Below are positions 5,727-23,703 of a stretch of DNA of 64,000 bases, piece by piece. Position 1 is the stretch's first letter; every line of letters starts with the position of its first letter. Origin of the DNA: Gemmatimonadaceae bacterium (lineage in GTDB: Bacteria; Gemmatimonadota; Gemmatimonadetes; Gemmatimonadales; Gemmatimonadaceae); contig JBHYGA010000001.1 in assembly GCA_051859245.1 (NCBI GenBank), positions 512,001-576,000 of the forward strand. The letters run 5' to 3'. The notes beneath the pieces are model-generated. The model was not told the origin of the DNA, did not search any database, and was given only the letters and a program-made list of their open reading frames with translations. A program made the position numbers and the translations under genes.

Positions 5727-5833
5727 CGTGATCGAAGAGTAGCGTGGCGCTCACGTGCAGGCGCGCATCGCTGTGGCGAACGGGCATATGGATGAGGTGA
5801 GCCGTGAACCCATCGCGAACTCGAGACGGAGGA

Positions 5834-6151: not shown

Positions 6152-6248
6152 ACCTAACGCCTACCGTTCAGCTGAAGCCGCATCAAATAGAAGCGCGCGA
6201 AGCGCGCCATCCATCGCGCGGCTGTCAGTCTGCAACGGCTTGTTAGGC
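6152..6248 (-). mobile_element. Integron attC site (attC-1)
   Basis: Minus strand GCCTAAC-N5-GTTGCAG...CTGAAC-N7-GTTAGGT; imperfect hairpin; the upstream ORF's TAA lies in the R'' box. Confidence 0.9.
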
Positions 6249-6812
6249 CGATTTCGTAATTGGTATTTTGCCGACGAAGTAGAGACCTTCGCCGAGTGAG
6301 CCGAGGTCAGACAGCGACGCGGCCGAGGGTTGAAGGCATCCGACGTTGGCATCGAAATGGTAGAACGTGACATCTCGGATGATCGAGATTGAATGCATGC
6401 CCGACAGACCGCCAAAACGGCTTGAGTTAACAAATGCCATCAGCGCGGATTCCGAGTACCCGAGTAGGTCTTGCTCAATCTTCGCAGCATTGGTGGTGAC
6501 GTCGGCATAGGATGTATGGCTCACGGCTGCCCTCGCTCGCACAAAGATCGAGTGATTCGACGTTTCATGTAATGATTGAATGACTTTGTAGCCGCTCATG
6601 CCGGGCTGGCTATACCTCACGACGAAGTCGGCGAGATACGTAGCCTCGGCACATCGAGGATCAGGCGACAACCCGAAGTGCTCACAGTACGCGACAAAGT
6701 ACGAGAGGGGCGTCGCCCGCAGCCACGGCCATAGTGCCGAGGCGTAGCTCGCCAACACGCAGTAATTCCCCGATTGCACGTATGCCAAGCTTTCGAAATT
6801 TCGTCGGTCCAC
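6243..6812 (-). CDS. Integron cassette hypothetical protein, possible papain-like fold
   Basis: 189-aa ORF between two attC sites; QSGNYC...MHSISI...HFDAN. Confidence 0.7.
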   Translation of the reverse strand: MDRRNFESLAYVQSGNYCVLASYASALWPWLRATPLSYFVAYCEHFGLSPDPRCAEATYLADFVVRYSQPGMSGYKVIQSLHETSNHSIFVRARAAVSHTSYADVTTNAAKIEQDLLGYSESALMAFVNSSRFGGLSGMHSISIIRDVTFYHFDANVGCLQPSAASLSDLGSLGEGLYFVGKIPITKSA

Positions 6813-6830: not shown

Positions 6831-6922
6831 GCCTAACGCCAGCTGCTGCAGCGGGCGTTAAATGAAATGCGCGCGCAGCGCGCTACGGACAGTTCGCCCG
6901 ACTGCAGCAAGCATCGTTAGGT
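6831..6922 (-). mobile_element. Integron attC site (attC-2)
   Basis: Minus strand ACCTAAC...TGCTGCAG...CTGCAGCA...GTTAGGC; stop of the TIR ORF inside R''. Confidence 0.88.
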
Positions 6923-7885
6923 GCCGTCTAGTGGAAATGCAGCTCTGACAAGTGCAGCGACCAGCTCGTCCGCCAACTCCGTCGAGCTGAATGGGCGCCC
7001 GCGTCCGTCCTCGTGCCAGACCCATCGATCACCCTTGGCAAGCCGAGAGCGGAAATCTCTATCTACAAGTCGAGTGACCTGATGGCTATCATAGCCACGC
7101 GCGCCAGGAAACCGCATGTATCCGCGGATGATTCGAGCATGAAGTCCAGACTTCTCGAGCGTGTTACTCCAGTTGAGCCGGAATCCAATTGAAAGAGCGT
7201 GATCGCGAATCTGCACGACGACGTGCTCACCGTCGGCGCCGGATACTACTCGCTCACCTGGAGCGTTCTGAGCAATCAGCGCGACTGACCGCTCAACGTG
7301 CTCGAACATGACGATTAGCTCGGACTTGAGCATTCGAACTCCGGCGTCGCTCGACTCAATGCTCGCCCGTCTCTCCTCATCCTGGTGTGTCCTCAACAAT
7401 CGCTCGGCGAGCTCCGCAGGCGTCTCTATGCGCTCCTGCACCCCAATCTCGCGCGTACGCGCAAGAACGACCGCCGCGAGGCCGTCGACACCGAAGTCAG
7501 CGACACTCGCGTAGATGCGGCTCTGTGGTAGCCATTTAGGCGGCTTCTCGCCGGCTACCAAAGAAGCGAGCAGAACCGTCTCCCACCCGCCCTCGAGCGC
7601 TCGGTCTTTAATCGCTGCTGCTTCAACTCTGGTCCAAGGAGTCTGCTCGTAGCCCTCGCGGAAGAGGATCACATTTAGAGCGGACTCACTTCTAAACGGA
7701 CTGCGAAAGGTTTCGAGGCCGTCCGTGCCGGCCACTTCTTCTTGACTACGCTCGTACATAAAGACCTTTAGACGTGGCGCCAGCGCTGCGTAGAGCGCAC
7801 GGGCTATATCAATGTCGCGAGCGAGAAATGAGATGGCTACGTGATACTTGAACTCTGGCATCTTTAGTTGGACGTCCGTGGACAC
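6917..7885 (-). CDS. TIR-domain protein (integron cassette)
   Basis: YHVAISFLARD...VFMYE...GYEQTPWTRVEAAAI TIR pattern with conserved Glu; true start may be ATG 7861. Confidence 0.8.
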   Translation of the reverse strand: MSTDVQLKMPEFKYHVAISFLARDIDIARALYAALAPRLKVFMYERSQEEVAGTDGLETFRSPFRSESALNVILFREGYEQTPWTRVEAAAIKDRALEGGWETVLLASLVAGEKPPKWLPQSRIYASVADFGVDGLAAVVLARTREIGVQERIETPAELAERLLRTHQDEERRASIESSDAGVRMLKSELIVMFEHVERSVALIAQNAPGERVVSGADGEHVVVQIRDHALSIGFRLNWSNTLEKSGLHARIIRGYMRFPGARGYDSHQVTRLVDRDFRSRLAKGDRWVWHEDGRGRPFSSTELADELVAALVRAAFPLDGT

Positions 7886-7976
7886 CTAACGCCCAGCTTC
7901 TGTTGCGAGCGGACGGCAAGAGGCTTCATGCGACGCAGATGGTCGGTCCGCTCGGCAACAGCAAGCACCGTTAGGC
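7884..7976 (-). mobile_element. Integron attC site (attC-3)
   Basis: Minus strand GCCTAAC...CTGTTGCCGAGCGGAC...GTCCGCTCGCAACAG...GTTAGGT. Confidence 0.88.
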
Positions 7977-8116: not shown

Positions 8117-11100
8117 ATGCCAGCAAAGGGTGGAGCATCCGGGAAGTTTGGCGACCAGTACGAAGCGCTCTGGACAGTCGACGCATTGCTACGGGTCGTT
8201 GATGGCCAAGCAGATTCCGTCACGTATGAATCCCTCGACCCTGCGTTGTCCCGTGGTGTTGAGTTCAATCTACGGTCGTCAGCAGGGTACCTGGAGTTCT
8301 GGTCGATCAAGCGACAGACGGCCACGGCGGCCGGGTGGACTCTTGCAACGCTAGTGAAGCCGGACAATGCCGGTAGATCAATCCTTGGCGACCTTATTGC
8401 CCACGTAGAACGTAACGTCAGCAATATCGCCGTTTTTGCATCCACACTTGGAGCGGCAAAGCTTGAAGAACTTCGTTCCGCTTCAGCAACAGCTGATACC
8501 TTCAATGCACGCCTCGATCAATCCAAGGAACTCACCGCCGACTACAAAAGGTACCTCCTACCCCTCTTCGGTGGTGATCAAGAGCGTGCTCGCCAGTTCC
8601 TGACACGGGTCCAAATCCGAACATCGGATGAGACATCGCTCCGGACTAATATTGAATCGGCGATCTCTCGACTGTTCTATCGAGAGACGGGTGAAGCAAT
8701 CAATGCGTCCGGGATCCGCCGATTTCTGGCCGAATACCTGCTCAATCACATCCACGAGCAGATCGATCGGAGCATGCTATTTGACCACATCGCGGCGAAC
8801 GGCATCCGCCGAATGGATTGGAAGGTCGAGAAGACGATCCGCGAGAAAGTTTCGGCGCTCTGCGATGAGTATACCCAACCGCTACGTGAGCAGTTGATTC
8901 GCGGTGTGCTTCAGACATTGCCGGGGGCAGACAAGTTGCTCGGCCCTGACGGACTGCCGATTGCCCGACGGACGCTTCTTGCGGGTGGTGCTGGGGGAGG
9001 CAAGAGCACTGAACTTGCGCACATTGTGGAACGACTTCGCAAGGCGGAAATACCCACGCTTCCTATACGGCTGGACGTTGTCCCAGAGAGCATTCTCACG
9101 CCGACGAGATTGGGGAGCGATGTGCTGTCCCTTCACACATCCCCAGTGGCCTTACTTGCGGGTATCGCCGAAGGCGGGAACTGTGTTCTGGTCATCGATC
9201 AGCTCGACGCTGTAAGCCTTGCCTCTGGTCGCCGCACCGAGGTCTGGACGCTGTTCGAGCGGCTATTGGCCGAGGCGGACGGCTATCCGAACCTTAGGAT
9301 CGTAGTCGCCTGTCGAGCTTTCGACCTGGAGCACGATCATCGAATGCGGTCGCTGAAGGCAAAGTCGTCCGTATTCGAGGTCGTCGAGATCGGCTCATTC
9401 GACTCGAAAACGGTGAACGCCATTCTAGGGGATCGGAAGGTACATCCCAAGCTGAAGCCTCTACTAGTTGTTCCTCTCCATCTCGCCATGTTCCAATCGT
9501 TGGCGACAGGCGAGAGCGAACGCATCGAAACCCGTGATGAACTGTTTGCGGCCTTTTGGACCGACAAGCAGCGGAAGACGTCACATCGCCTTGGGAGAGA
9601 TTGCAACTTCGCCGGTGTGATCGATTGGCTGGCTACTTGGCTGAGTGATCATCAAGAGTTGTCGGCGCCTGCCAGCATGCTCCCGGACGAGAGGCGTGTG
9701 GATGCCGACGCCCTGACGTCAGAGCACGTGTTGGTGCTCGCGGACGGTCGATACCGATTCTTCCACGAGACGTTCTTCGACTATGCCTTCGCTCGCCGCT
9801 TCGTCCAGCGAGGCGAAACATTGATGGATCTGGTGCTACACGGAGAACAGCATCTGTTTCGTCGAGCACAGGTACGACAGATTCTCACGTTTCTGCGCGC
9901 GAATGATCGGGCGCGATACCTCGAAGAATTGCAGTCCATCCTCAGCGAGGATCGCGTCCGCTTTCACATAAAGCGAGTGTTGTTTCAATTCCTTTCAGCG
10001 CTCTCTGATCCGACGCACCCGGAGTGGGCCGTGCTGCACGAGCTTTCGTCTGTACAGCCGGATTTACTTGGCCAAGTAAATGGAGTTGTATCGAATCACG
10101 CCGGCTGGTTCGATGTGATGCGTGCGGACGGATTTTTCGACGCGGCGCTGTCGAGCAGGGAGGCGAAGCAAGAGGAACGCGCTATATGGCTCTGTGGAAT
10201 GCCAAGGGTAATGGAGCAGTGTTCCGCGCAAGTTGCCGGGCTATTGGTGAAGTACCGGCGCGATGATGAAGCGTGGCGAAAGTATCACCGACATATCTGT
10301 CGGACTGGAAATACATTCCACAGCCGCGAGATGTTCGACCTATTCCTCTACCTGATTCGGGATGGGACGCTTGATGGAGCACGGCCCGGTTTCGCAGTTA
10401 ATGACAACTGGTGGAGTATGCTTTACTCGGTAGCGGACAAGGCCCCTGCATTGGCTAGTGAGGCAATTGCGGCCTGGTTTGACCGAAAGCTAGAAATCTG
10501 GCGTGCGGAAACCTCGGAAAGAAACGCGCTCACGAATGGTGGAGACGACGCAGACGTAGGGGACGAAAACGCCCCTGTCACCGATGCTGTTGAGTCGTCG
10601 GCGCAGAACTTGCGACGACACGTTGAAGACGACGGAAATGACTGGGGCGTTATCCAAAAGGCCGCAGAAGCGTCGTTGGAATTCGCGCAGCATCTGTTAC
10701 CCCGAATCGCAGACGTCGCCGCTGAGCAAGCGAAGCCCTCCGGTGATGATTTGGCAATTGACCCGCTGTGGTCGTTTAGGATGTTCGGAGATAGCGGGCA
10801 TGGAGCGTCCGACTTAGTCCTCAGCAACGTCGCGCAAGCACTTGAGAGGCTCGCGCAGAAGTGCCCTGAAGAGCTGGACAAGATTCTCGCGCCATACACT
10901 GAACGCCCGCACGACGCCATTGCCTATCTTGTGCTCCGCTCATGGACAGCTGCTCCAACCACCTACGCAGAACGTTGTGCTCAATATCTGAGCGAAGACG
11001 CGCGGCGACTGAAGATCGGATACGCGTCGTGGGGCGGAGGTGCTGGGGCCGGAATGGCATCCGGATACCGATCGATTGAGGCAATACGCGCATCGTCGCC

Positions 11101-12769
11101 ACACTGCGCACCCGAGACGTTCGCCGCTCTGGAAACAGCAATCGTCAATCTAGCGGACAACTGGGAGACCAAGCATCCGAAGACGCGAGGATTGCGGCAA
11201 TTGCAGCTCCTCTCCGCCATGGATATGAGTCGGCTTGGAACTGCCGGTAGATCGAAGCTGGCTGAACTCAAGGCGAAATTCCCTGAAGTCACGCACGAGC
11301 CTCCCAAAGCGATGGAGGTCGTTTGGGTCGGATCACCGATCCCCGACGACGCTCAGGCGAAAATGACCGATGATCAATGGCTCTCGGCTCTGGCGAAGTA
11401 CGCTGGTGTTGAGCGCCGGCACGATAGAGACTTCGGAGCATCGGGTGGTGAATACCAACTCGCGCAATCGCTCGAAGCCAGAACAAAGGCTAATCCCAGT
11501 CGGTTTGCCGCGCTCAGCTCCAGAATGCCGACGACGTTTCCGTCTTCGTACTTCAACGCGGTACTCCGTGGCGTTGCCGGCTCATCGTCACTAGACGGTC
11601 CGGCCGCGCCTCCCGTGTCCGTGCCTGATGTAGTCGCACTAGTCGAGCAAGTTCACGCGCTGCCAGAACGTACTTGCGGACGATCGATCGCGCACCTTCT
11701 CGAAGGCTGGAGCAAGGTCGAGTGGCCGCCTTCGATCATTGAGGCGATTGCCTGGTATGCTATGGAGGATCCTGATCCCACGGAAGAAGTCTGGCGAACG
11801 CGTTCAGCCAGTGGCCAGTTCTACTACGGCGGCAAACCCGACTCGGCAGGGTTGAATTCGACCCGCGGAGCGGCCGCCAACGCAATTGCACGGTTGCTTC
11901 TCGAGAAGCGCGAACCGGGTGACGTGCTCAGAAAGGCAGTTGAACATCTCGCCCATGACACGTCGATCGCGGTGCGGTCTCAGGCGGTTTACCCCCTGCT
12001 TGCGTTGCTCGATACACATGCCGACCATGCCATCAGGTGGTTCGTTGAATGTGTCAGCCTTGACCCGATTCTGCTCAAGGCGCACTTCGTTGAGCAATTC
12101 CTTTATCATGCGGCGTTTCGTGACTATGCTGCCATTCGACCTGTACTCGAACGAATGACCGCAAGTGACGATGAGGAAGTAGTTGAGGCTGCCGCTCGAT
12201 TGTGCTGTGTGCTCGCATTTGGCTTTGAACCAGCCGACAAAGACGCCAAGAAGATTCGCGAGGGAGGTCCAGCAATGCGCAAGAGCGCTGCCAACGTCTA
12301 CGCTACCAACGTCGCGAACGAAGAAGTCGGGGCGAGTTCACGCGAACTGCTGCTGCCTTTTTTCTCAGACACTGAAGATGCGGTGAGGACACAAGCGGCA
12401 AGTGCATTCCACGAACTTGAAAAGCTTGATGCCGCCGAGCAGGCCAAGTTGCTCGGAGCATTCTTGGATGGCAAACCTACAGCCGAAGCGTTGGAACGCG
12501 TCATCCGCGCGATCGAAGACTCGCCGGTTCAATTGCCCGACCTCGTCATCCGCGTGGTCGAAGAGGGTATTGCGGCATTCAAGGCAGATGCGGGCGACAT
12601 ATCCAAAGCGGGAGCCATGGTCGCTGGCGACCTTTCGAAAATTGTCATTAGACTGTACTCGCAGTCGGATGGTGAGCAGATCAAGAAGCGGGCTCTTGAC
12701 GCGATTGATGACATGGAGCGGGCCGGATTCTTCGGATTGGCGGACGAATTAGGGAAGCTCGAACGCTGA
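8117..12769 (+). CDS. Nuclease-STAND NTPase-helical repeat protein, Avs4/AVAST-like anti-phage protein
   Basis: N-terminal PD-(D/E)xK-like region (GDQYEALW...GVEF...EFWSIKRQ), Walker A GGAGGGKS, Walker B LVIDQLD, VVACR, FFHETFFDY, long helical C-terminus; 1550 aa. Confidence 0.75.
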   Translation: MPAKGGASGKFGDQYEALWTVDALLRVVDGQADSVTYESLDPALSRGVEFNLRSSAGYLEFWSIKRQTATAAGWTLATLVKPDNAGRSILGDLIAHVERNVSNIAVFASTLGAAKLEELRSASATADTFNARLDQSKELTADYKRYLLPLFGGDQERARQFLTRVQIRTSDETSLRTNIESAISRLFYRETGEAINASGIRRFLAEYLLNHIHEQIDRSMLFDHIAANGIRRMDWKVEKTIREKVSALCDEYTQPLREQLIRGVLQTLPGADKLLGPDGLPIARRTLLAGGAGGGKSTELAHIVERLRKAEIPTLPIRLDVVPESILTPTRLGSDVLSLHTSPVALLAGIAEGGNCVLVIDQLDAVSLASGRRTEVWTLFERLLAEADGYPNLRIVVACRAFDLEHDHRMRSLKAKSSVFEVVEIGSFDSKTVNAILGDRKVHPKLKPLLVVPLHLAMFQSLATGESERIETRDELFAAFWTDKQRKTSHRLGRDCNFAGVIDWLATWLSDHQELSAPASMLPDERRVDADALTSEHVLVLADGRYRFFHETFFDYAFARRFVQRGETLMDLVLHGEQHLFRRAQVRQILTFLRANDRARYLEELQSILSEDRVRFHIKRVLFQFLSALSDPTHPEWAVLHELSSVQPDLLGQVNGVVSNHAGWFDVMRADGFFDAALSSREAKQEERAIWLCGMPRVMEQCSAQVAGLLVKYRRDDEAWRKYHRHICRTGNTFHSREMFDLFLYLIRDGTLDGARPGFAVNDNWWSMLYSVADKAPALASEAIAAWFDRKLEIWRAETSERNALTNGGDDADVGDENAPVTDAVESSAQNLRRHVEDDGNDWGVIQKAAEASLEFAQHLLPRIADVAAEQAKPSGDDLAIDPLWSFRMFGDSGHGASDLVLSNVAQALERLAQKCPEELDKILAPYTERPHDAIAYLVLRSWTAAPTTYAERCAQYLSEDARRLKIGYASWGGGAGAGMASGYRSIEAIRASSPHCAPETFAALETAIVNLADNWETKHPKTRGLRQLQLLSAMDMSRLGTAGRSKLAELKAKFPEVTHEPPKAMEVVWVGSPIPDDAQAKMTDDQWLSALAKYAGVERRHDRDFGASGGEYQLAQSLEARTKANPSRFAALSSRMPTTFPSSYFNAVLRGVAGSSSLDGPAAPPVSVPDVVALVEQVHALPERTCGRSIAHLLEGWSKVEWPPSIIEAIAWYAMEDPDPTEEVWRTRSASGQFYYGGKPDSAGLNSTRGAAANAIARLLLEKREPGDVLRKAVEHLAHDTSIAVRSQAVYPLLALLDTHADHAIRWFVECVSLDPILLKAHFVEQFLYHAAFRDYAAIRPVLERMTASDDEEVVEAAARLCCVLAFGFEPADKDAKKIREGGPAMRKSAANVYATNVANEEVGASSRELLLPFFSDTEDAVRTQAASAFHELEKLDAAEQAKLLGAFLDGKPTAEALERVIRAIEDSPVQLPDLVIRVVEEGIAAFKADAGDISKAGAMVAGDLSKIVIRLYSQSDGEQIKKRALDAIDDMERAGFFGLADELGKLER

Positions 12770-13177: not shown

Positions 13178-13268
13178 GCCTTACGCTAGCGTTGTCCTGT
13201 GGCGGCCGAGCGCAGCGAGGAATAGCCACCCCTTTGTGGCGGCCGTCAGGACAAACGCGAGGTTAGGC
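13178..13268 (-). mobile_element. Integron attC site (attC-4), R' core mutated to GTAAGGC
   Basis: Minus strand GCCTAAC...GTTTGTCCTG..GGCCG...CGGCC..CAGGACAAC...GTAAGGC; ORF stop in R''. Confidence 0.82.
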
Positions 13269-14177
13269 CGGAGCGCCGAAGCCTGTTGGCAGGACGGTCG
13301 CGCGAATACGTCTGTCGAGCGCCTCAACGAGATCCTCCGGCGCCTTCCACAGGATGTGACTGTACTGCCTCGTGTCAAAGTGGGCGTCCTTGATAGCGTC
13401 CTCACGGCAGGTCCAAATCACCGGAATCCCGTGCCCCTGGGCGAGACCGGCTTCGAAGTAGACTCCGCCTCGATGACCCGTGAAATCCGCGACCAGCAGT
13501 CCGCTTCGCTTGACTTCGGCGACGATCTCGTCATCAATCTTGTTGTTGTGTTCCTTGCGGTCGATGCGGAGCGCGGAGAAGTACTTCGAGCGCTCGATAC
13601 CGGGCTTGAATCCGTGAGTCCACGCGTCATCGAGCGAAGAATCGAACCACATCGCGACGAACGCCTGCCGACTGTCACGGTTCACAGCTCGAAGTGCTTC
13701 AATGCGCTGCCAGCCGGCGGCAGTGATTCGCTTCGTCGTCTGGTCGAAGAAGCCCATCTCCGCAGCCATGAACACCAAGTCGCCATACTGCGACTCGTCA
13801 CGAACCGGTACGCGGACATAGTCGTATTCCGGCTGCAGATTGATTTGCTCGCTGTATCGACGTGCCTTGGTGGCAAGATGGAGCAGAATTAGATCGACAC
13901 CAGAAGCCAACGTGCTGGTAGATGGCGCTGTGGCCGCAAGCTGCGGAGTGTTCTCGACGGTCACGAACAGATGCTCACGTCGATCTGTGGCAGCGCGGAT
14001 CGCGAATGCAAGGCGAAAGCGATCTCGTCCGAGTATGCGTTCGATTGTGGATCCAGTTGCTAGACGATCAATGGAATAGCTTCCGCATCGAGGGCATGAG
14101 AGCGTGACGGCATCGCGTTCCGGGAACCGCACCTTTTCGGTCTGAGCACCGTCACGACCACAAATCGAGCATTGCAT
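13263..14177 (-). CDS. Zn-ribbon + nucleoside 2-deoxyribosyltransferase/TIR-like domain protein (first cassette)
   Basis: CSIC...CPRC; QAFVAMWF...KIDDEI...VADFTGHRGGVYFEAG...HFDTRQY. Confidence 0.8.
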   Translation of the reverse strand: MQCSICGRDGAQTEKVRFPERDAVTLSCPRCGSYSIDRLATGSTIERILGRDRFRLAFAIRAATDRREHLFVTVENTPQLAATAPSTSTLASGVDLILLHLATKARRYSEQINLQPEYDYVRVPVRDESQYGDLVFMAAEMGFFDQTTKRITAAGWQRIEALRAVNRDSRQAFVAMWFDSSLDDAWTHGFKPGIERSKYFSALRIDRKEHNNKIDDEIVAEVKRSGLLVADFTGHRGGVYFEAGLAQGHGIPVIWTCREDAIKDAHFDTRQYSHILWKAPEDLVEALDRRIRATVLPTGFGAPA

Positions 14178-14445: not shown

Positions 14446-14760
14446 CTATGTCGGATCCATGTCGAGCGGGCTACGGACGCCAGGGCCACCGCGATTGAGG
14501 ACGTGCGTAAAGATCATCGTGGTCGACAAGTAGCGATGGCCGAGCAACTCTTGCACGGTGCGAATGTCATAACCGGCCTCAAGCAAGTGCGTCGCGAACG
14601 AGTGACGGAAAGTATGGCAACCCACACGCTGGTCTAGGCCGATACGTCGTCCTGCTTCACACACCGCACGCTGAAGCACGCTGGGGTGGATGTGATGCGT
14701 CAATCGTACCCGGTAGTCAGGTGATTCGAACTCGCGACTCGCAGGGAACAGCAAATTGTC
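14446..14760 (-). pseudogene. intI: Integron integrase, C-terminal fragment, catalytic Tyr->Phe
   Basis: FPAS...[12 protein letters not shown]...[50 protein letters not shown]. Confidence 0.9.
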
Positions 14761-14776
14761 CACGCTGATACGCCGT

Positions 14777-15067
14777 CTACTCACGAACAACGGGCATCAG
14801 ATGCATCTCCACTCCCAGCGCGCGAAGAAGCTTTAGCACCGTGTCATATCTTGGTTTGGCTCCAGGAGCCAACGCCTTGTAGAGGCTCTCTCGGCCGAGT
14901 CCCGTATCCTTGGCCACCTGCGCCATGCCACGAGCCTTCGCTACATCGGCAATCGCCTGCAAAAAGAGTTCCGGATGCTCGCTCGCAAGTGCGACGTTGA
15001 GATATTCGGCGATGACTTCTTCGCTATCGAGATAGTCAGCGGCATCGAATGCAACAGGCTTTTTCAC
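14777..15067 (-). CDS. Addiction module antidote protein (HI1420/HigA-like HTH antitoxin)
   Basis: [11 protein letters not shown]...[22 protein letters not shown]...PRYDTV. Confidence 0.9.
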
Positions 15068-15535: not shown

Positions 15536-16320
15536 CATCAATCAAACCACCCATGCACAAACCACCGTCCCATTTCCTGATACAACAACAAATCTCCCTC
15601 GCCATCGGCCACACACCGCCAGTAATCGCGCGCGAACGCATCCGCACGCCACCAGTCGCCGGTGAGTCGCTCGGGACCACTCGCGTGTGACACCACCACG
15701 CGGCGCTGCTGCCACGCCACCGCACTCGGCGCACCATGCACGCCACATTCCACCGTGACGGGATCCGGCGTCTCCAGTAAACGCAACGCGGCGTGATCGA
15801 GTGGCGACGCTGCACGCGGTGTTTCATCATCACGCGATGTCACATCAGCGCGCGCACGAACATCACGCGCTGTCGCACCACCCGACGTCACATCCTCACG
15901 CGTCGCACGCTCCGCTAACGTCCACGCATCCGCACGCACCCACACACCGGCGCGATCATACCGATGTGCATCTTGGCTTTCCGGATGCACCACCACATCA
16001 CCGCGTCCGTCCGGATCAAGCGCCGCCGCCAATCGCGCAATCGCCGCTTCAACACTCGCCGCGGCATCACGCCACGACGGTTCAAGCAAATCCCCTTGAT
16101 CTGCAGCAAGTGGTGCAGTGGCGGGAATGTGCACGGTCACACCAGTCACAGCCGCCGACCGTATCCATCGCTCAAGCAACGAGCGACACTGTTCAACAAG
16201 AGGTTCAACACGCGCAAGCGGACGAGCAGGACGCACTTCGCGCGTAATGCTGCGCGTCGCACGATCCCATCCGTCGAGACGCTGCGCATCGACGCCCACA
16301 ATCGCTTCGAGATGCGCGTC
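15536..16320 (-). repeat. Duplicated 3' end of imuB (copy A, no 5' part)
   Basis: Near-identical to 19240-19976, with SNPs and a 48-bp in-frame insertion. Confidence 0.92.
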
Positions 16321-16470
16321 GCTACTCTGAGTCTCGCTTGTACACCTTGCCTACGCCTTCGCAAAGATGTTTCGCAATCTGAAATCCGCGTTAGTTGCGC
16401 ACGCGGGAAATCGCGTATGTCCCGTTATCAATGATTCTCGCAAGGCGAGCTCGGCCGTATAAATGAAGAC

Positions 16471-16548: not shown

Positions 16549-17223
16549 ATGCGTGCAGGCTCACTTGATCGGTTTGCTACTTGGGCAGTGATAGTAGCGG
16601 CGATCAGCGTTGCAGCGAGTTCGCTGCTGAGGGCGGTTGAGCGTGTCCCCGTAGACTCCGTAACGGATGACGCGCCCCAAACCCGGTTCGTCGATGATTG
16701 GAAGCTCTTGGTCGCCGACGGAATTTCTTCAGGCGATGCGAATGCCGACGTGACGCTTATCGAGTTCGCGGATTTTGAGTGCTCGTACTGTGCACGCGCG
16801 CACTTGGGGCTGCGCGAACAACTCGCTCAGCGCGGCTCGACAGTGCGACAGGTCTTTATGCATTTCCCGCTTAGGTCTCACCGCTTCTCTCTGCCATCTG
16901 CTCACGCCGCTGAATGCGCCAATGTGCAGGGCAGGTTTGGTGAGATGAAACACGCACTGTTCTCACGGCAAGATTCCCTCGGGCTCAAGTCCTTGCGAAG
17001 CTACGCCGAAGATGCAGGTGTAGCCAACTTGGATGCGTTCGATGAGTGCCTCAAGGGAAGCCCGAACGATTTTCCACGTATCGCAGCGGGTCTAGCCGCC
17101 GCCGAACGACTGCGACTTCAAGTAACGCCCACCTTCATCGTGAATGGGTGGCAGCACATAGGCCTTTCCGCCGATTCACTGGTTGCGCTCATCGATGCGG
17201 AGCTTCTCAGCCAGGGGCGTTGA
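16549..17223 (+). CDS. DsbA-family thiol-disulfide oxidoreductase
   Basis: N-terminal anchor, EFADFECSYC, HFPL, TPTFIVNG. Confidence 0.9.
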   Translation: MRAGSLDRFATWAVIVAAISVAASSLLRAVERVPVDSVTDDAPQTRFVDDWKLLVADGISSGDANADVTLIEFADFECSYCARAHLGLREQLAQRGSTVRQVFMHFPLRSHRFSLPSAHAAECANVQGRFGEMKHALFSRQDSLGLKSLRSYAEDAGVANLDAFDECLKGSPNDFPRIAAGLAAAERLRLQVTPTFIVNGWQHIGLSADSLVALIDAELLSQGR

Positions 17224-17284
17224 AAGCAGTAACGTTATGGTGTTGTGTTGCGGTTCGTTTTCATCTTTCAATCGGAGCCGGACG

Positions 17285-17560
17285 ATGTCGCGATCACTGT
17301 TGGCGAAGACTGCGTTTCTTGTTGCTCTTGCAACCGTCGAATTTGGCATCGCCCCCAAGTCAGCCGGTGCGACAGAGAGCTCTAAAGCAAGTTCCTGTTC
17401 GTTTTGCTGGCCGTTTGGTTGCCCATCGAACATGGTGTGGACGGATCTGTGCCACCATTTTTGTGGAAATCACACCTTGTTAGGATGGTGTGAGGAGATG
17501 ACTGACCAGTGCGGTATTTTTATGGATGGCAATGTCACGTGCGCTGGCAACATTACGTGA
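17285..17560 (+). CDS. Small secreted Cys-rich peptide (91 aa, 8 Cys)
   Basis: Signal-like N-terminus ending AGA, followed by a core with 8 Cys. Confidence 0.7.
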   Translation: MSRSLLAKTAFLVALATVEFGIAPKSAGATESSKASSCSFCWPFGCPSNMVWTDLCHHFCGNHTLLGWCEEMTDQCGIFMDGNVTCAGNIT

Positions 17561-17573
17561 GGGGGACCGCGAT

Positions 17574-18026
17574 ATGAGCGCGATTTCTCGGCAGCTCACT
17601 GCGCGCATTGTGGCGCCTTACCTCTTGTGCCTCTGCCTTCCGCTTTCTGTGGAGGCGCAGCGAACTGGGCATCCGCCGCTTCCGGCGGAGGTTCTGAAAC
17701 AGGCCGAGGGAGCGTACTATGCCCCACGAGATCAATCGCATCGACGAGCGTGCATGCTGAAGGCGGTCAGCCGGGGGCTGGAGTTAAAACCTGCACAGCT
17801 GGCAGGGTTTGTTGACGCGATCGCTGTATATGCCGACACGACCAGTTCCCCACGCTCCCGTGCTGAAGTCATGCAACGTACCCGAGTTCGCGATTCCTCT
17901 CTCTTCGCTCTGGTGGCGACGAGAAAGGACTCGTTGGCGCTCAAGCGAAGTATTGGAACTGAGGAGGCTTGGTGGCGTGCCGGCAACTGCAACGGAAGAC
18001 TCGTTTCGCGTGATGCGCCACCGTGA
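17574..18026 (+). CDS. Hypothetical secreted protein
   Basis: GGGGG RBS; signal peptide ending VEA-Q; operon position. Confidence 0.65.
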   Translation: MSAISRQLTARIVAPYLLCLCLPLSVEAQRTGHPPLPAEVLKQAEGAYYAPRDQSHRRACMLKAVSRGLELKPAQLAGFVDAIAVYADTTSSPRSRAEVMQRTRVRDSSLFALVATRKDSLALKRSIGTEEAWWRAGNCNGRLVSRDAPP

Positions 18027-18072
18027 TTTCAAGGCACGGCCCACATTGCATCGTGGCAGCCACTCTGTACTA

Positions 18073-19284
18073 GTGCGATGGTGTTCTATCACGCGTGGAT
18101 CTCGTGTTGTGCTGCTTGGTTCGCTGTTCTGGGGAGGCTGTGACGGGGCGTCTAGTGAATCGGGGTCTCTCCCGCTACTTCAGCTCGCGCCCGTTTCCGC
18201 AGAAAGTGTGGTCGGTTACACATCCATCACCAGCGTTCGAGAACTCGGTGACGGACGTGTTCTGGTGACTGACCCGCGCGAAGGACGCGTTGAAGTGCTG
18301 GACTTTTTTACTGGCACTGCCACTCCAGTCGGGCGGCGCGGCGCCGGTCCCGAAGAATGGTCGTCGGCAGTGGCGGTGTGGCCCTTGGGAACCGATTCGA
18401 GTCTACAGTCGGATCCGCTGGCTCGTCGCTGGGTGTTTTTTTCGGGAGACCGGGTAGCAGCAGTTCAAACTGGTGAGTCTCTGCCGAATGAGCTCGGGCG
18501 GATGCTGATATACGGCGCAGACTCGCTTGGGAATGTGCTGAGTTTTCATCAACCCGAGATTCGGGAGCTCGGTGCTTCTGCGGACTCAGCGTCAATCCTC
18601 ATCGTTCGTCGTGCTTCCGGTCGTGTCGATACCGTCGGTCGGCTTCTCAGCGCACCCGGCGTATTGGTCGGATCAAACGTTAGAGCTGTGAGTCGACCCG
18701 CGCTCGCGGTCGGTGAGCAAGCTGCAATGTTCGTCGACGGCTGGATCGCTATTCTGCGATTACGCCCGTATCGCGTTGATTGGAGATCTCCGGACGGCAG
18801 CGAGTTGCGTGGTGCCCCGGTTGAAGTCACCGATCCCCCACTCACAGAGTCCGATCGCAGTCTCTACATTCGCGACCATCAGACGTTTATTGCGTCAGTC
18901 GACAAGATGCCGCCCGGAATGCGTGACCTCGCGCGTCGGGCGGTCTCTGATTTCCCTTCGACGCTGCCTCCTGTGCAACCTTTCGCTTTGGTCGCCGGCG
19001 GAGACGGGCTGTTGTATGTTCGTCGGACTAAGTCCGCTGACCTGCCGATGCCGATTCTCGACGTCGTAGACCGATCAGGCGTTCGTTGTGCACGCATTCA
19101 GCTTGCTGTGGGGGAGCGGCTGCAGAGCGTGACCCAGCGTTGGATGTATGTAGTGGTTATTGATGAAGACAACGTCGAGCGTGTTCGTCGCTACGAAAAT
19201 GTTGCCTCGGCCGCCGCGAATAGTTCGCCGCTCACGAGTCATCAATCAAACCACCCATGCACAAACCACCGTCCCATCTCCTGA
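18073..19284 (+). CDS. Beta-propeller (6-bladed-like) lipoprotein
   Basis: Lipobox-like FWGGC, VRELGDGRVLVTD, GRRGAGPEEW; start uncertain; C-terminus overlaps the imuB stop region. Confidence 0.7.
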   Translation: MRWCSITRGSRVVLLGSLFWGGCDGASSESGSLPLLQLAPVSAESVVGYTSITSVRELGDGRVLVTDPREGRVEVLDFFTGTATPVGRRGAGPEEWSSAVAVWPLGTDSSLQSDPLARRWVFFSGDRVAAVQTGESLPNELGRMLIYGADSLGNVLSFHQPEIRELGASADSASILIVRRASGRVDTVGRLLSAPGVLVGSNVRAVSRPALAVGEQAAMFVDGWIAILRLRPYRVDWRSPDGSELRGAPVEVTDPPLTESDRSLYIRDHQTFIASVDKMPPGMRDLARRAVSDFPSTLPPVQPFALVAGGDGLLYVRRTKSADLPMPILDVVDRSGVRCARIQLAVGERLQSVTQRWMYVVVIDEDNVERVRRYENVASAAANSSPLTSHQSNHPCTNHRPIS

Positions 19285-19976
19285 TACAACAACAAGTCGC
19301 CTTCACCATCGGCCACACACCGCCAGTAATCGCGCGCGAACGCATCCGCACGCCACCAGTCGCCGGTGAGTCGCTCGGGACCACTCGCGTGTGACACCAC
19401 CACGCGGCGCTGCTGCCACGCCACCGCACTCGGCGCACCATGCACGCCACATTCTACCGTGACGGGATCCGGCGTCTCAAGTAAACGCAACGCGGCGTGA
19501 TCGAGTGACGATGCTGCACGCGGTGTCTCATCATCACGCGACGTCACATCCTCACGCGTCGCACGCTCGGCTAACGTCCACGCATCTGCGCGCGTCCACA
19601 CACCGGCGCGATCATACCGGTGCGCATCTTGGCTTTCCGGATGCACCACCACATCACCGCGTCCGTCCGGATCAAGCGCCGCCGCCAATCGCGCAATCGC
19701 CGCTTCAACACTCGCCGCGGCATCACGCCACGACGGTTCAAGCAAATCCCCTTGATCTGCAGCAAGTGGTGCAGTGGCGGGAATGTGCACGGTCACACCA
19801 GTCACAGCCGCCGACCGTATCCATCGCTCAAGCAACGAGCGACACTGTTCAACAAGAGGTTCAACACGCGCAAGCGGACGAGCAGGACGCACTTCGCGCG
19901 TAATGCTGCGCGTCGCACGATCCCATCCGTCGAGACGCTGCGCATCGGCGCCGACAATCGCTTCGAGATGCGCGTC
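19240..19976 (-). repeat. imuB 3' end (copy B, within the intact gene)
   Basis: Direct repeat of 15536-16320. Confidence 0.92.
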
Positions 19977-20963
19977 CGTATTCTGACGCGCCACATCAAG
20001 CTCCAGCGTAATCGCCACCGACGCCGCTGATCGTCCGTCACGCACGAGATCGTGCACCAGACGTTCAAGCGCCGCGCGCACAAGAAATCCAACTGGCGTC
20101 ACAGTCTGCGCCGGTGTCGCCAACTCGGCGTGCACCGCGCGTGGTGCATCAACACGCACAAGTCCCGGACGACGCGGATCAATACCGCGCGCGAGTTTCC
20201 AACTGGCTAGACCGGTGGCACCCCAACGCGCTTCTACATCACCAGACGCCAGCGCCGCAAACGCACCGAGTGTGCGAATGCCGAGTGCGCTCAGTGCAGT
20301 GCGCACATCCGCGTCCATGGGAATCAAACCCAGCGGAGCGGGAGCCAGATACGCCGCACACCCACCACTCGGCACAATCGTACTGGCACTGCCACGCGGA
20401 GGATTCCACGTCGCCGCGCGCGCTGACACACACGAATCCGCAATCGCCACACGCGCATCTGGATGCCAGCGGCGCGCAATTGTGAGCAACAACTCGAGCA
20501 ACGCGTCTTCACCACCGGGTCGATTGGCAAAACCATTCGCACCAATCCACCACGTGCCTGCGGCACCCGCGGCCGGCGTGACCTGCGGACTGGCCGCCAG
20601 AAATGACGCCGTGGTTTCGGTAATCGCACGCGTGATCGTGTCATGATCCCACTCGCGCACATCAAGCGTCGCACACCGCGCCCGCGCTTCGGTCACGCGC
20701 ATTCCCGCCGTGACGCCAGCCCGCGCCGCCGCCACCGACACGGCCTTGAGCCGCTGTCCCTCCATGAGCGCCCGCGGAGCCGTATCCCAATGGGCAGCCG
20801 GCGCCGCCAGCACCGTTTCCGCCGGCCCCATCGCCAGCGCCAACGTGAGCTGCACCGGCGCCGCACCCACCGGTACCGGCGCATTCCGCCACACCGCCCC
20901 AAGAGGGAAGCGCGGAATGCGAACACAGGCAATTCGCCAGGGGGAAGGGGCAGGGGAAGTCAT
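19242..20963 (-). CDS. imuB: ImuB, Y-family polymerase-like mutasome subunit
   Basis: IACVRIPRFPL, AARAGVTAGMRVTEARARC, LGIRTLGAFAAL, GPERLTGDWW...RDYW...HGWFD. Confidence 0.85.
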   Translation of the reverse strand: MTSPAPSPWRIACVRIPRFPLGAVWRNAPVPVGAAPVQLTLALAMGPAETVLAAPAAHWDTAPRALMEGQRLKAVSVAAARAGVTAGMRVTEARARCATLDVREWDHDTITRAITETTASFLAASPQVTPAAGAAGTWWIGANGFANRPGGEDALLELLLTIARRWHPDARVAIADSCVSARAATWNPPRGSASTIVPSGGCAAYLAPAPLGLIPMDADVRTALSALGIRTLGAFAALASGDVEARWGATGLASWKLARGIDPRRPGLVRVDAPRAVHAELATPAQTVTPVGFLVRAALERLVHDLVRDGRSAASVAITLELDVARQNTDAHLEAIVGADAQRLDGWDRATRSITREVRPARPLARVEPLVEQCRSLLERWIRSAAVTGVTVHIPATAPLAADQGDLLEPSWRDAAASVEAAIARLAAALDPDGRGDVVVHPESQDAHRYDRAGVWTRADAWTLAERATREDVTSRDDETPRAASSLDHAALRLLETPDPVTVECGVHGAPSAVAWQQRRVVVSHASGPERLTGDWWRADAFARDYWRCVADGEGDLLLYQEMGRWFVHGWFD

Positions 20964-20978
20964 TATCAGGTTCGTTAT

Positions 20979-20995
20979 ACCGAATAAATACCGAA
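20979..20995 (-). promoter_or_regulatory. Candidate SOS operator upstream of imuB
   Basis: TTCGGTATTTATTCGGT, 16/17 identical to the box upstream of imuA. Confidence 0.6.
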
Positions 20996-21112
20996 AACAA
21001 ACCCCGCCGTCCAGCACGCAGTTCCTCCGTGCCTCCGTGTCCCCGTGGTAAAAGCAGTTGCCGTTCGGATCTCTGTCTTGACATCTGATGCGTGATGCGT
21101 GATGTTTCCACC

Positions 21113-21340
21113 GTGCGCACCACGCTAACTCTGGACGACGACATTCTCGACGCGGCCAAAGCAATCGCCGCCGCCCGAGGCGTCTCCATTGGCGAGGTGA
21201 TCTCTGAACTGGTCCGTACGGCGCTGTCGACTCCCACCCAGCGGAGCACGCGCAACGGTATCACGCTTTTCCCGGCGCGAGCGGGCGCCGGACGCGTGAC
21301 GCCCGACATCGTACGCACCTTGCTCGATGAGTCCGCGTAA
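21113..21340 (+). CDS. VapB-like CopG/RHH antitoxin
   Basis: MRTTLTLDDDILDAAK...SIGEVISELVR; upstream TTGACA and TGATGCG tandem repeats. Confidence 0.85.
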   Translation: MRTTLTLDDDILDAAKAIAAARGVSIGEVISELVRTALSTPTQRSTRNGITLFPARAGAGRVTPDIVRTLLDESA

Positions 21341-21788
21341 GGGGCGGCATATTCGCCGCGCTCTGCTCGATGTAAACACGGTGCTGGCGCTGCTCGACCC
21401 GCAGCACGTGTTTCACGACGCCGCGCACAGCTGGGCCGCCTCCAATCCTGAGGCGCGCTGGCTCACTTGCCCACTGGTGCAAAACGGTGTGCTGCGCGTC
21501 GTCGGCAACCCCGCCTATCCCAACCACCTCGGCAGCGTTACCGCCGCGCGCGAAGTGCTCGCCGCGTTCTGCGCATCACCACGCCACGAGTTCGTGCCCG
21601 ACAACATTTCGTTGCTCGACGCCGATCGTGTGCGTGATGCGACCATGCTCACGCCATCGCGCGTGAACGATTTATATCTGCTCGCGCTGGCGATCGCGCA
21701 TGACGCGCAGCTCGCGACGTTTGATCGCAAGTTGCCGGCCGATGCGATTCACGGTGGACGTGAGGCGGTGCAGTTAATCGACGCGTGA
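21327..21788 (+). CDS. vapC: VapC-family PIN toxin
   Basis: LLDVNTVLALLD...CPLVQNG...DLYLLALA...LATFDR. Confidence 0.88.
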   Translation: MSPRKGRHIRRALLDVNTVLALLDPQHVFHDAAHSWAASNPEARWLTCPLVQNGVLRVVGNPAYPNHLGSVTAAREVLAAFCASPRHEFVPDNISLLDADRVRDATMLTPSRVNDLYLLALAIAHDAQLATFDRKLPADAIHGGREAVQLIDA

Positions 21789-21800
21789 GCTAACGCCGCA

Positions 21801-23096
21801 TTACCGAACAACGTCAAAGTGCGCCATCATGCCAGCGGCGTGGTGTTCGAGGATATGACAGTGGTACATCCAACCACCGGGTCGATCATCCGGGAGCCAG
21901 GCAATTCGCACGCTCCCGAATGATGGCACGTTTACTGTGTCCTCCCACGACAGTCTGTCGGTCGGTATGCCATTGACCGCCAACACCTGAAAGAAGAAGC
22001 CGTGCAAGTGGAACGGATGATGAATCGGTGAGCGATTCAACACATCCCAAACCTGCAACTCTCCGACCCGAACCGGATCGGCGTGGTGATGCTGCTCGCG
22101 ATTGATGTTGAACTCAGCGCCGTGCTTCATGCCGAGGCTGAAGCCGAGACGCACCTCGCGAGTAGGTGTGACAGGTCCCGTCACGAGCGGCTCGATCGTG
22201 CGCAGCGGATTCGGAACTTGCGCAAGCGAAGGCGCGCGCGCGCCAAGCTTCAGTGTAGCGAAGCGCTCCGGCCTGCGGTGAGACTTGAATGAACCGCGAT
22301 CGAACGGCAGCGTCTCGATGCGAAACGTGTCACCCTCTGCGAACGGGCCGACGGCGATCTCCGTACGATTCGCGGTGCAGAGGAGGACTTCGGTCGCGAT
22401 CACTGGCGAAGGAATCAATCCACCTCCGCTACCGATGATCTGGAACGGCTGGCCGCCCACCGAGAGCCGTACATAGCGTGCGCTGGAAGCATTCACGATT
22501 CTCCATCGCTCAATTTGGCCAGCCGCCATGTGGATCACCGGCTCGTGTTGGCCGTTCACAAGACGGGTGCTTCCCTCGCGTCCGTCATGCGATTCAAGCC
22601 ACCACCCGGGTGACTTGATGGCGCCGTCTTTCTCAAGCTCCACGTCGTCGAACACGAACGTCCGGTCGGCATCGAACACCGGTTCGTCGGCCGCACGCAC
22701 GATGACTGCGCCGTAGAGCCCGCGTTCCAACTGCACCGTTTCATTGAAGTGCGAGTGGTACCAGAACGTGCCGGCGTCAGGCACACGAAATCGGTACGTG
22801 AACGTCTCGCCCGGGAACACCGGGCGTTGGGACCGCTCCGTACCGTCCATGTCTGCCGGAATCCGGAGCCCGTGCCAATGCACCACCGTAGGCTCGGGAA
22901 GACGATTGACGAAGCGGATCTCAAGTACATCACCAACCTGCGCCTCGATGGTGGGGCCCGGCACCTGCCCGCCAAACGCCCAGGCCCGAGTTCGCTGACC
23001 GGGCACGAACTCCCAGTCGATTTCACAGGCCTCAAGCTCAACGATCACGACTTCGCGTCCCGCATCCGGCTCCGCAGACTCCAGTGCACTGTACAT
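21801..23096 (-). CDS. Multicopper oxidase
   Basis: HWHG, WYHSH, HPFHLHG and HCHILEH...M copper ligands. Confidence 0.93.
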   Translation of the reverse strand: MYSALESAEPDAGREVVIVELEACEIDWEFVPGQRTRAWAFGGQVPGPTIEAQVGDVLEIRFVNRLPEPTVVHWHGLRIPADMDGTERSQRPVFPGETFTYRFRVPDAGTFWYHSHFNETVQLERGLYGAVIVRAADEPVFDADRTFVFDDVELEKDGAIKSPGWWLESHDGREGSTRLVNGQHEPVIHMAAGQIERWRIVNASSARYVRLSVGGQPFQIIGSGGGLIPSPVIATEVLLCTANRTEIAVGPFAEGDTFRIETLPFDRGSFKSHRRPERFATLKLGARAPSLAQVPNPLRTIEPLVTGPVTPTREVRLGFSLGMKHGAEFNINREQHHHADPVRVGELQVWDVLNRSPIHHPFHLHGFFFQVLAVNGIPTDRLSWEDTVNVPSFGSVRIAWLPDDRPGGWMYHCHILEHHAAGMMAHFDVVR

Positions 23097-23097
23097 G

Positions 23098-23703
23098 CTA
23101 CAGTCCCACGCCGAAACGCAGACCCACGAACGTCGCGCTGAACTCCGAGAGTCCGCCCCGCTGCTTCTCACCGAAGACGTTGACCTGCTTCACGAACATG
23201 CCAATCTCGTACTGTCGCAACCGACGCCCCACGTCGACGTACGGCGCGAGAAACGCACCGTTGCCCTTGAAGAAGGAACCCGTCGCTGCTCCTTCCGTTG
23301 GCGCCGCACCTTCGCGAGCCATCGCGTTCACGATGAGCCCACCACCGTGTACGCCGCCCGAAATAAACCAGGACTTCCCGTACGAGAGTTCGATGACCGG
23401 GCCTGCGGCTTGATAGTTCATCGACGTGACGGCGTTCTTATCGGAGTTGGCAACGAGCGTCTCAACACCGATCCGCAGAAACGGCTTCACTTTGTACATC
23501 AAGAAAAACCCGGACATGTGCGGGCCCTCAGGGCCGTCCGGTGCGAGATCGTCGAACGCGGGATCGAGACCTGATAACTCCATCGTGCCCGTGATCAGCG
23601 CCGAACGAATTCCTGCGACGTACTTGCGATCGCGTTCCTGCGCCGCTGCCATCGACGGCAGCATGGCCGCCAGAATCACGAGCAAACCAATTTTCTTGAA
23701 CAT
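23098..23703 (-). CDS. Hypothetical outer-membrane beta-barrel-like protein
   Basis: Signal peptide, alternating beta strands, C-terminal VGLRFGVGL. Confidence 0.6.
   Translation of the reverse strand: MFKKIGLLVILAAMLPSMAAAQERDRKYVAGIRSALITGTMELSGLDPAFDDLAPDGPEGPHMSGFFLMYKVKPFLRIGVETLVANSDKNAVTSMNYQAAGPVIELSYGKSWFISGGVHGGGLIVNAMAREGAAPTEGAATGSFFKGNGAFLAPYVDVGRRLRQYEIGMFVKQVNVFGEKQRGGLSEFSATFVGLRFGVGL

Follow-up and report, generated by a model that had tools for sequence, protein, structure and literature searches.

In a 64,000-nucleotide stretch of DNA from a Gemmatimonadaceae bacterium (GenBank assembly GCA_051859245.1, contig JBHYGA010000001.1, positions 512,001 to 576,000 of the forward strand), a small open reading frame (ORF) that encodes eight cysteines lies directly downstream of a gene for a DsbA-like thiol oxidase and upstream of genes for a small putative secreted protein and a β-propeller. 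We refer to the whole of this stretch as the window and count positions from its first letter. The arrangement raises the question of whether these neighbours form a dedicated system for an exported, disulfide-rich peptide, as had been proposed in a sequence-only reading of the same DNA. We find that the small ORF is a conserved gene tied to DsbA and propeller genes in other genomes, which bears out the central part of that proposal; its defensin-like fold stays at the level of a lead, and its inclusion of the small secreted protein as a conserved part did not hold. The explanation we favour, with some reserve, is a mobile Gemmatimonadota module that makes an exported four-disulfide peptide, which is oxidized by the DsbA-like protein and bound by the propeller.

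A compact four-gene module

The module consists of four co-oriented, closely packed genes at 16549–19284 on the forward strand, and each of the four that the sequence-only reading had described is present as an ORF:

16549 (ATG; or GTG 16540) to 17223, forward strand: DsbA-like gene, predicted membrane-anchored thiol oxidase with a CSYC site
17285 (ATG) to 17560, forward strand: eight-cysteine peptide precursor, 91 amino acids, with GGAG 8 nucleotides upstream
17574 (ATG) to 18026, forward strand: g3, 150 amino acids, with GAGGGGG upstream and a signal-like N terminus
18013 (ATG) or 18073 (GTG) to 19284, forward strand: NHL-type propeller, with a non-native C-terminal tail from about 19200

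The genes are separated by 61 and 13 nucleotides and then, depending on the start codon of the propeller gene, by a 14-nucleotide overlap or a gap of 46 nucleotides. Spacing this short fits a single putative operon.

An unnamed family of eight-cysteine peptides

The leader of the 91-residue precursor ends in ...KSAGA, and eight cysteines follow within a 54-residue core, as had been reported earlier. Given that cysteine makes up 1.0% of the residues encoded by 11 long ORFs of the window, at least eight cysteines would be expected by chance in 54 residues with a probability of only about 8e-8. An exhaustive HMMER search of 1.84 billion representative sequences (E ≤ 1e-3) yielded 11 matches, comprising the query, three full-length relatives (P0043, P0045 and P0048; 89–90 amino acids, E values of 3.8e-8 to 1e-4, 33–44% identity) and seven long proteins. 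These seven (492–2337 amino acids, with 5–17 matched stretches) were dropped as repeat or low-complexity matches, P0044 and P0046 having been inspected individually. A word-index search with the peptide returned the query alone. Five further members were found in the related loci described below, and a profile search re-found two of these (P0050 and P0051, which are already called as genes in public records) and added P0052–P0054.

The family thus comprises 12 distinct proteins including that of the window, with lengths of 84–91 amino acids and exactly eight cysteines after the N terminus, which in every member is basic and then hydrophobic in the manner of a signal peptide. The cysteines follow the framework C-x2-3-C-x4-8-C-x6-10-C-x3-C-x6-9-C-x5-9-C-x7-11-C, in which the spacing of three between the fourth and fifth cysteines is found in 11 of the 12. 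The cores are anionic, with net charges of −1 to −7 across the 12 members. Pairwise BLAST comparisons tie window-type peptides to those linked to DsbA genes in other loci (for example, P0045 to the L035 peptide at 8e-6 and P0045 to P0052 at 1e-5).

Outside the cysteines, peptide cores from different loci are 14–44% identical, compared with 32–50% for the DsbA-like proteins and 32–41% for the propellers. Judged by these identities, the peptide diverges at least as much as its partners, and the term ‘hypervariable’, which had been anticipated for the cysteine-rich ORFs, would overstate the difference.

Because relatives exist and the framework is conserved in 11 other proteins, the possibility that the small ORF is not a gene was ruled out, and its conservation marks it as a real gene of an unnamed family. 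No family for the peptide was found in Pfam, NCBIfam, a Protein Data Bank (PDB) sequence-profile search or Atlas (best Atlas score 0.79, which is below threshold), in keeping with the earlier remark that no named family was recognized for it. Among 72,556 plasmid records there is no match to either the peptide or the propeller, and in searches of the literature, supplements aside, neither this peptide family nor the module turned up.

The peptide gene is linked to DsbA and propeller genes

Related loci were collected by scanning genomes with a propeller profile built from 11 closer sequences. The scan confirmed 257 relatives, and 79 loci (766,557 bp; designated by L numbers) were kept from these. 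When ORFs within roughly 3 kb of the propeller were clustered across the 79 loci, a single recurrent neighbour family emerged, the DsbA-like proteins, encoded on the same strand as the propeller and a median of 686 nucleotides upstream. An intact, stand-alone DsbA-like gene was identified with a hidden Markov model (HMM) in six loci (L049, L038, L057, L027, L035 and L053), and in all six an eight-cysteine ORF with a signal peptide abuts it. In five of them the peptide gene lies directly upstream, giving the order peptide–DsbA–propeller, and all five peptides carry the framework of the window peptide. In L053, a different eight-cysteine secreted protein (about 106–122 amino acids) is encoded directly downstream of the DsbA-like gene and is followed by two propellers. 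The window, with its order of DsbA, peptide, g3 and propeller, also departs from the order that prevails elsewhere.

A blind six-frame screen of the 79 loci for ORFs of 50–130 amino acids with a signal-like start and at least six cysteines gave seven candidates, five of which are the ORFs adjacent to DsbA-like genes; the L038 peptide falls below the hydrophobicity cut-off and was found by HMM and by eye. The other two candidates (L007 and L026) lie on the opposite strand, lack the framework and look spurious. Cysteine-rich ORFs are therefore found in six of six loci with an intact DsbA-like gene versus none, credibly, of the other 73 (Fisher p 3.6e-9), or with p 1e-7 if the two dubious candidates (2 of 73) are counted.

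The sequence-only reading had suggested a neighbourhood survey of this kind and had named homologous loci that lack cysteine-rich small ORFs as the outcome that would speak against it. The survey, run through the propeller, gave the opposite, with all six loci that pair DsbA with a propeller carrying such an ORF. Recurrence of the trio in related genomes makes it a probable working unit, and it constitutes a conserved and often mobile module.

Traces of the module also persist where it is incomplete. In L023, a 49-residue C-terminal remnant of a DsbA-like protein (5748–5894) lies directly upstream of the propeller and behind a toxin–antitoxin-like pair of the MNT/HEPN (nucleotidyltransferase/HEPN) type, which was named by eye. 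The L023 propeller is sister to that of L049 in a quick tree (below). Only a DsbA remnant is kept there, so loss of the module does happen. A second, truncated DsbA copy was likewise picked up by the HMM at the end of L038.

The window module has no nucleotide similarity to any of the 79 loci beyond 60 nucleotides in the propeller gene. A shared upstream regulator was not found, as four candidate upstream ORFs gave no cross-matches; a GerE-type helix-turn-helix gene lies upstream in L038 and a gene for a sigma-70 region-4 protein in L053.

A DsbA-type oxidase with the peptide as its probable client

The DsbA-like protein matches the Pfam families Thioredoxin_4 (8.3e-23) and DSBA (8.4e-9), and its active site is present, so the CSYC DsbA of the earlier proposal is confirmed at the level of family assignment. 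Besides an N-terminal hydrophobic anchor or signal and the CSYC site, it has a cis-Pro loop with the sequence TPT and a further, conserved cysteine pair. Its closest solved relatives are 4pwp and 4pwo (2e-11), whose chains were deposited as DsbA. The six DsbA-like proteins of the related loci are 30–38% identical to that of the window. Across these seven orthologues the CxxC site (CSYC), TPT and C123/C167 are invariant, and the N-terminal hydrophobic anchor is common to all. By family match and invariant motifs, then, the protein is classed as a DsbA-type thiol oxidase. The propellers carry only zero to two cysteines and would hence be poor clients of this enzyme, leaving the peptide as the obvious one.

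An NHL-type propeller and an orphan secreted protein

The β-propeller of the sequence-only reading withstood structure prediction. An AlphaFold2 (AF2) model built on a 30-sequence alignment has a mean predicted local distance difference test (pLDDT) score of 88.4 and a predicted template modelling score (pTM) of 0.86, and consists of all-β blades with a helical insert at about residues 259–292. The best Foldseek matches are NHL domains (Thin, TRIM2/3 and Brat; 5e-8 to 1e-6) with a query TM-score (TMq) of about 0.4, and the family profile matches the NHL regions of TRIM71 and Thin at 2e-11. The Pfam family DUF5128 (‘6-bladed beta-propeller’) is weakly matched by 14 of 30 propeller relatives (best 1.2e-4). 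The window protein itself lies below every Pfam and NCBIfam threshold, with no DUF5128 match at E ≤ 0.05. On the strength of the model and these matches, we assign the propeller to an NHL-type six-bladed fold that is distantly related to DUF5128. It resembles DUF5128 and NHL propellers in its predicted fold and its blade sequence motifs, but differs from DUF5128 in its sub-threshold scores and helical insert. DUF5128 has no known function, so that the match gives no mechanism.

The named relatives of the propeller all come from Gemmatimonadales, Gemmatimonadaceae or Longimicrobiales genomes, some of which show a strong expansion of the family. More typical DUF5128-like paralogues adjoin the modules in L038, L057 and L053. 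Additional DUF5128-like propeller genes of greater divergence flank the modules at L053 3195–5203, L038 3542–4825 and L057 1950–3167.

Both ends of the window propeller deserve comment. A bacterial lipobox has the consensus [LVI][ASTVI][GAS]C after the hydrophobic region of the signal. The lipoprotein of the sequence-only reading depends on a putative lipobox in the window protein (...VVLLGSLFWGG-C) that is non-canonical, with an atypical W at −3, and most of its relatives have ordinary signal peptides without this lipobox cysteine. The relatives end in ...RLRRHPWP, whereas the window protein diverges at this point and continues for about 25 extra residues (19200–19284). The last 15 codons are antisense to an imuB-like gene inside a flanking repeat (see below), and the tail is disordered in the model.

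The 150-residue product of g3 had been counted as part of the system. It has no Pfam or NCBIfam match, none of the 79 loci contains a homologue, and its best Atlas score (0.81) is sub-threshold and serves as a lead only. It thus appears to be a secreted or periplasmic orphan and an accessory specific to the window locus.

Predicted peptide fold and comparison with defensins

An AF2 model of the peptide, built on four sequences, has a mean pLDDT of 59.5, with 66–79 in the core and a disordered leader. It contains strand 37–42, helix 49–60, strand 65–71 and strand 81–87, a β-α-β-β order in which the CxxxC pair C56/C60 sits in the helix, within a block of pLDDT about 77–79. A Foldseek search of this weak model against the PDB gave nothing below E = 2; Psd1, VrD2, brazzein and SCR9 appear only at E values of 4–8 and probabilities of 0.1 or less. 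Pfam Gamma-thionin matches one of nine members at E 0.35. The CXC motif (a cysteine–cysteine spacing of one) that defines cis-defensins, in which it lies on the C-terminal β-strand and pairs with the CXXXC of the helix, is found in none of the 12 members. The 12-residue helix of the model is atypical for knottins, whose small all-β core contains three knotted disulfides.

The predicted topology resembles a cysteine-stabilized α/β (CS-αβ) arrangement, and a defensin-like fold, which the sequence-only reading had put forward, is demoted to a lead, as it must be while the CXC motif is absent. A survey of bacterial cis-defensins, which have the CS-αβ fold, describes in its main text five classes with 74 peptides from three phyla, including class V peptides with four disulfides and three strands; Gemmatimonadota is not among the phyla surveyed, and DsbA does not occur in that main text (PMC11561630). 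Like cis-defensins, the peptides of the window family appear from their sequences to be made as small precursors with a Sec signal and a mature domain rich in disulfides, they have CxxxC spacing on a predicted helix with β-strands after it, and seven of 12 contain a GxC motif. Unlike cis-defensins, they lack CXC and have no significant fold or sequence match, and their anionic cores set them apart from classical cationic defensins.

A more far-reaching idea is that the peptides represent a deep-branching bacterial CS-αβ offshoot with eight cysteines and no CXC, in which each peptide is matched by an NHL propeller as its receptor or immunity protein and has an oxidase to itself, the whole serving as a portable, diversifying pair for recognition or killing between Gemmatimonadota. 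We regard this as distinctly unlikely. If it were true, the module would be a bacterial counterpart of plant pairs of a defensin-like ligand and its receptor, such as SCR/SRK.

A model for peptide maturation and its alternatives

We infer that the 91-residue precursor would be exported unfolded via Sec and that a leader of about 30 residues would be removed at a presumed cleavage site. The co-encoded, membrane-anchored DsbA of actinobacterial type would then oxidize the eight cysteines to four disulfides, whose number and pairing are, like the action of this enzyme on the peptide, presumed. The predicted product would be a compact, anionic β-α-β-β domain of about 60 residues. The NHL propeller, either periplasmic or tethered to the outer membrane, would bind the peptide as a receptor, immunity or carrier protein. 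Free or bound to the propeller, the peptide would most likely act outside the cytoplasm in bacterial antagonism or signalling; it may be a toxin, a signal or a small subunit of an enzyme or of the propeller.

Several observations weigh against this model. All loci were sampled through the propeller, so that the linkage counts are anchored on that gene, and in 71 of the 79 loci no DsbA-like sequence lies near the propeller. Tandem propeller paralogues occur without DsbA or cysteine-rich ORFs, five in L009 (3648–8584) and three in L028 (3706–6916). L067 (7394–8680) has a 429-residue frame (a 416-amino-acid ORF) with a DsbA-like domain (HMM E 1.5e-11) about 350 nucleotides downstream of the propeller, with an N-terminal membrane part that is VKOR-like by eye and no cysteine-rich small ORF; this protein may be a housekeeping oxidase of the phylum. 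Among 82 propellers placed in a quick IQ-TREE tree, the seven linked to DsbA do not form one clade (seven changes versus a shuffled mean of 6.8). L049, L038 and L057 fall into one weakly supported group of six, and the deep forks of the tree are open, so that a single origin may still apply. No DsbB, VKOR or MauE gene is present in the module or the window, and reoxidation of the DsbA must accordingly depend on a gene elsewhere. A simple scan of the forward strand upstream of the module found no sigma-70-like promoter, the peptide is anionic and matches no known antimicrobial family, and the mean pLDDT of its model is low.

One competing explanation is that the peptide, instead of being released, is a disulfide-knotted small subunit of a periplasmic complex in which the propeller is the large subunit and a dedicated thioredoxin-fold protein brings about maturation, in the manner of methylamine dehydrogenase (MADH), whose MauB is a β-propeller. 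The mau cluster likewise brings together a propeller and a CXXC protein of thioredoxin fold with a small, cysteine-rich secreted polypeptide, and here parts of these three kinds are encoded side by side in close packing. According to a recent report, the six disulfides of MADH, which lie in its cysteine-rich light chain MauA, the partner of MauB, depend on the thioredoxin-fold CXXC protein MauD (10.64898/2026.03.05.709764). Anionic, tryptophan-containing cores would also suit a structural subunit as well as a toxin. However, no Pfam or NCBIfam model for MauA, MauB or MauD matches any of the three proteins (peptide, propeller and DsbA), and the window ORFs include no MauG-like or MauE-like gene, nor one for amicyanin. 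The window peptide has half the size of MauA, with eight rather than 12 cysteines, and its propeller is NHL-type; no tryptophan is invariant across nine aligned members, and most propellers of the family have no peptide. These differences make a MADH-like subunit unlikely in our estimation, albeit the strongest competitor.

It could also be argued that there is no dedicated system, the DsbA being a general envelope oxidase with the peptide as one client, the propeller a common secreted protein of Gemmatimonadota and their adjacency a product of island mosaicism. The propeller family is indeed abundant (257 genome matches, several per genome, some in tandem arrays), the modules lie in mosaic, mobile regions, propellers linked to DsbA are scattered in the tree, and the window gene order differs from that of other loci. 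Yet the closely spaced, same-strand order peptide–DsbA–propeller occurs in five independent genomes, with variants in L053 and the window, at 30–50% identity and with differing flanks. The association of the cysteine-rich ORF with DsbA (6 of 6 versus 0–2 of 73) and the finding that DsbA is the sole recurrent neighbour also render chance adjacency quite improbable.

The window peptide further contains a CHHFC motif and three histidines, and a multicopper oxidase gene lies nearby (21801–23171), which might suggest a periplasmic metal- or redox-active Cys/His protein such as a copper buffer for that oxidase. Histidine is not conserved, however, with zero or one in 11 of the 12 family cores, and the oxidase gene lies outside the repeat-bounded module, beyond the imuB-like gene and a VapBC pair. 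Around the six other modules, no annotated neighbour is a multicopper oxidase, and linkage to an oxidizing DsbA argues for disulfides. We therefore consider a metal-binding role very improbable and return to an exported, DsbA-oxidized peptide with the propeller as its partner as the preferred explanation.

Relation to known peptide systems and significance

Sublancin is a product of Gram-positive bacteria whose leader is cleaved by an ABC transporter and which has an S-glycosylation, two disulfides and a small membrane immunity protein. In its cluster, sunA is accompanied by the thiol-disulfide oxidoreductase genes bdbA and bdbB. Like sublancin and glycocin clusters, the module appears to combine a disulfide-containing exported peptide with its own oxidoreductase on mobile DNA (for example, PMC4336743 and PMC6391423). 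It differs from sublancin in its putative four disulfides and its propeller, and shows no sequence relationship. Genes for maturases of peptides that are made ribosomally and modified post-translationally (radical-SAM enzymes, cyclodehydratases, lanthionine synthetases and the like) are absent among the module genes and annotated neighbours in the window and the six other modules. Systems in which an exported, disulfide-rich peptide of ribosomal origin comes with an oxidoreductase of its own are thus a known kind, as in sublancin clusters. New here are the family to which the peptide belongs and its framework, along with the phylum and the conservation of a propeller as partner.

Gemmatimonadota are an abundant but barely cultured soil phylum. 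To our knowledge, four-disulfide exported peptides are rare in bacteria, and we know of none described from this phylum. A compact, self-contained three-gene unit of precursor, oxidase and likely binding partner would serve, as it stands, as an expression cassette for a new scaffold rich in disulfides, and the peptide would be the first testable ligand for the large, function-less DUF5128/NHL propeller family of Gemmatimonadota. If the propeller acts as a receptor or immunity protein, the module would be an interbacterial peptide system of a new type.

The module lies in a mobile genomic setting

The four genes sit exactly between two direct-repeat copies, both of which run to the stop codon of an imuB-like gene. 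The features upstream and downstream are as follows:

14446..14790, reverse strand: integron integrase C-terminal fragment (TIGR02249, 9.5e-39, model positions 216–313 of 315), corresponding to the last 98 of about 315 residues
14777..15450, reverse strand: HigB/HigA-like toxin–antitoxin pair with a Gp49-type toxin (Pfam Gp49, 6.3e-6) and an HI1420-type antidote (Pfam dnstrm_HI1420, 9.5e-38)
15536..16330, reverse strand: direct-repeat copy A, a 3′ imuB-like fragment of 253 codons with an ORF at 15538–16299
19240..19986, reverse strand: direct-repeat copy B, the 3′ end of a full imuB-like Y-family polymerase gene at 19242–21164 (Pfam IMS, 1.1e-5)

Copies A and B are 96.2–96.5% identical by blastn, and copy A has a 48-nucleotide in-frame insertion relative to copy B. 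Repeats so placed form the pattern that would be left by single-crossover (Campbell-type) integration of a circular DNA carrying a homologous segment. A related strain would be the source of this segment, given that the copies are 96% identical. The HigA-like gene begins where the remainder of the integrase should be.

Three canonical integron attC sites (GCCTAAC...GTTAGGY; 92–97-nucleotide hairpins of −26 to −33 kcal/mol) are present at 6152–6248, 6831–6922 and 7884–7976. They bound two orphan cassettes with ORFs at 6243–6812 and 6917–7885 (reverse strand) that have no Pfam family, and no intact integrase lies beside the array. Like integron cassettes, the module encodes putative secreted orphans, and it lies 1.5 kb from the integrase remnant and 8 kb from the attC sites; unlike cassettes, it is bounded by 0.75–0.8-kb homologous repeats rather than by attC. 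A heuristic scan for R''/R' pairs with hairpins, strict or relaxed, found no attC flanking or interrupting the module and none from 12 to 23 kb. The idea that the genes are separate integron cassettes was rejected because attC sites are missing in and around the module, and its genes also appear too tightly coupled for such an origin.

The G+C content is 57–58% across 6–18 kb compared with 61–66% over most of the remaining window, and G+C at third codon positions (GC3) is 0.57–0.61 in the module genes versus 0.65–0.75 in flanking genes. Elsewhere, the module adjoins HicAB in L049, an IS110 transposase in L057, and a tyrosine integrase together with a PIN gene in L053. Together, the repeats, the integrase remnant, the toxin–antitoxin pair, the low G+C content and the mobile neighbours elsewhere place the module in the flexible genome. 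When the imuB-like gene, the integrase fragment and HigA were compared with the related loci, the only matches, both weak and partial, were imuB to L041 (4e-5 over 88 amino acids) and the integrase fragment to L053 (3e-4 over 42 amino acids).

Further genes of the window were noted in passing. In the low-G+C island, a 1550-amino-acid ORF at 8117–12769 (forward strand) with a marginal HEAT-repeat match (E 3.5e-4) has the attC array on one side and the integrase remnant on the other. A 304-amino-acid ORF at 13263–14177 (reverse strand) has an N-terminal CxxC...CxxC and a weak, sub-threshold match to nucleoside 2-deoxyribosyltransferases (E 0.003), and may be an island gene of the defence type. 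The imuB-like gene is directly followed by a VapBC-type pair (ribbon–helix–helix antitoxin and PIN toxin; 21092–21788, forward strand), beyond which lies the multicopper oxidase gene. Farther away, at 50563–56059 (reverse strand), a gene for an Eco57I/MmeI-type N6-adenine methylase–restriction fusion (1058 amino acids) overlaps the start of one for a SNF2-family helicase (866 amino acids), and the two are likely to form a restriction or defence locus.

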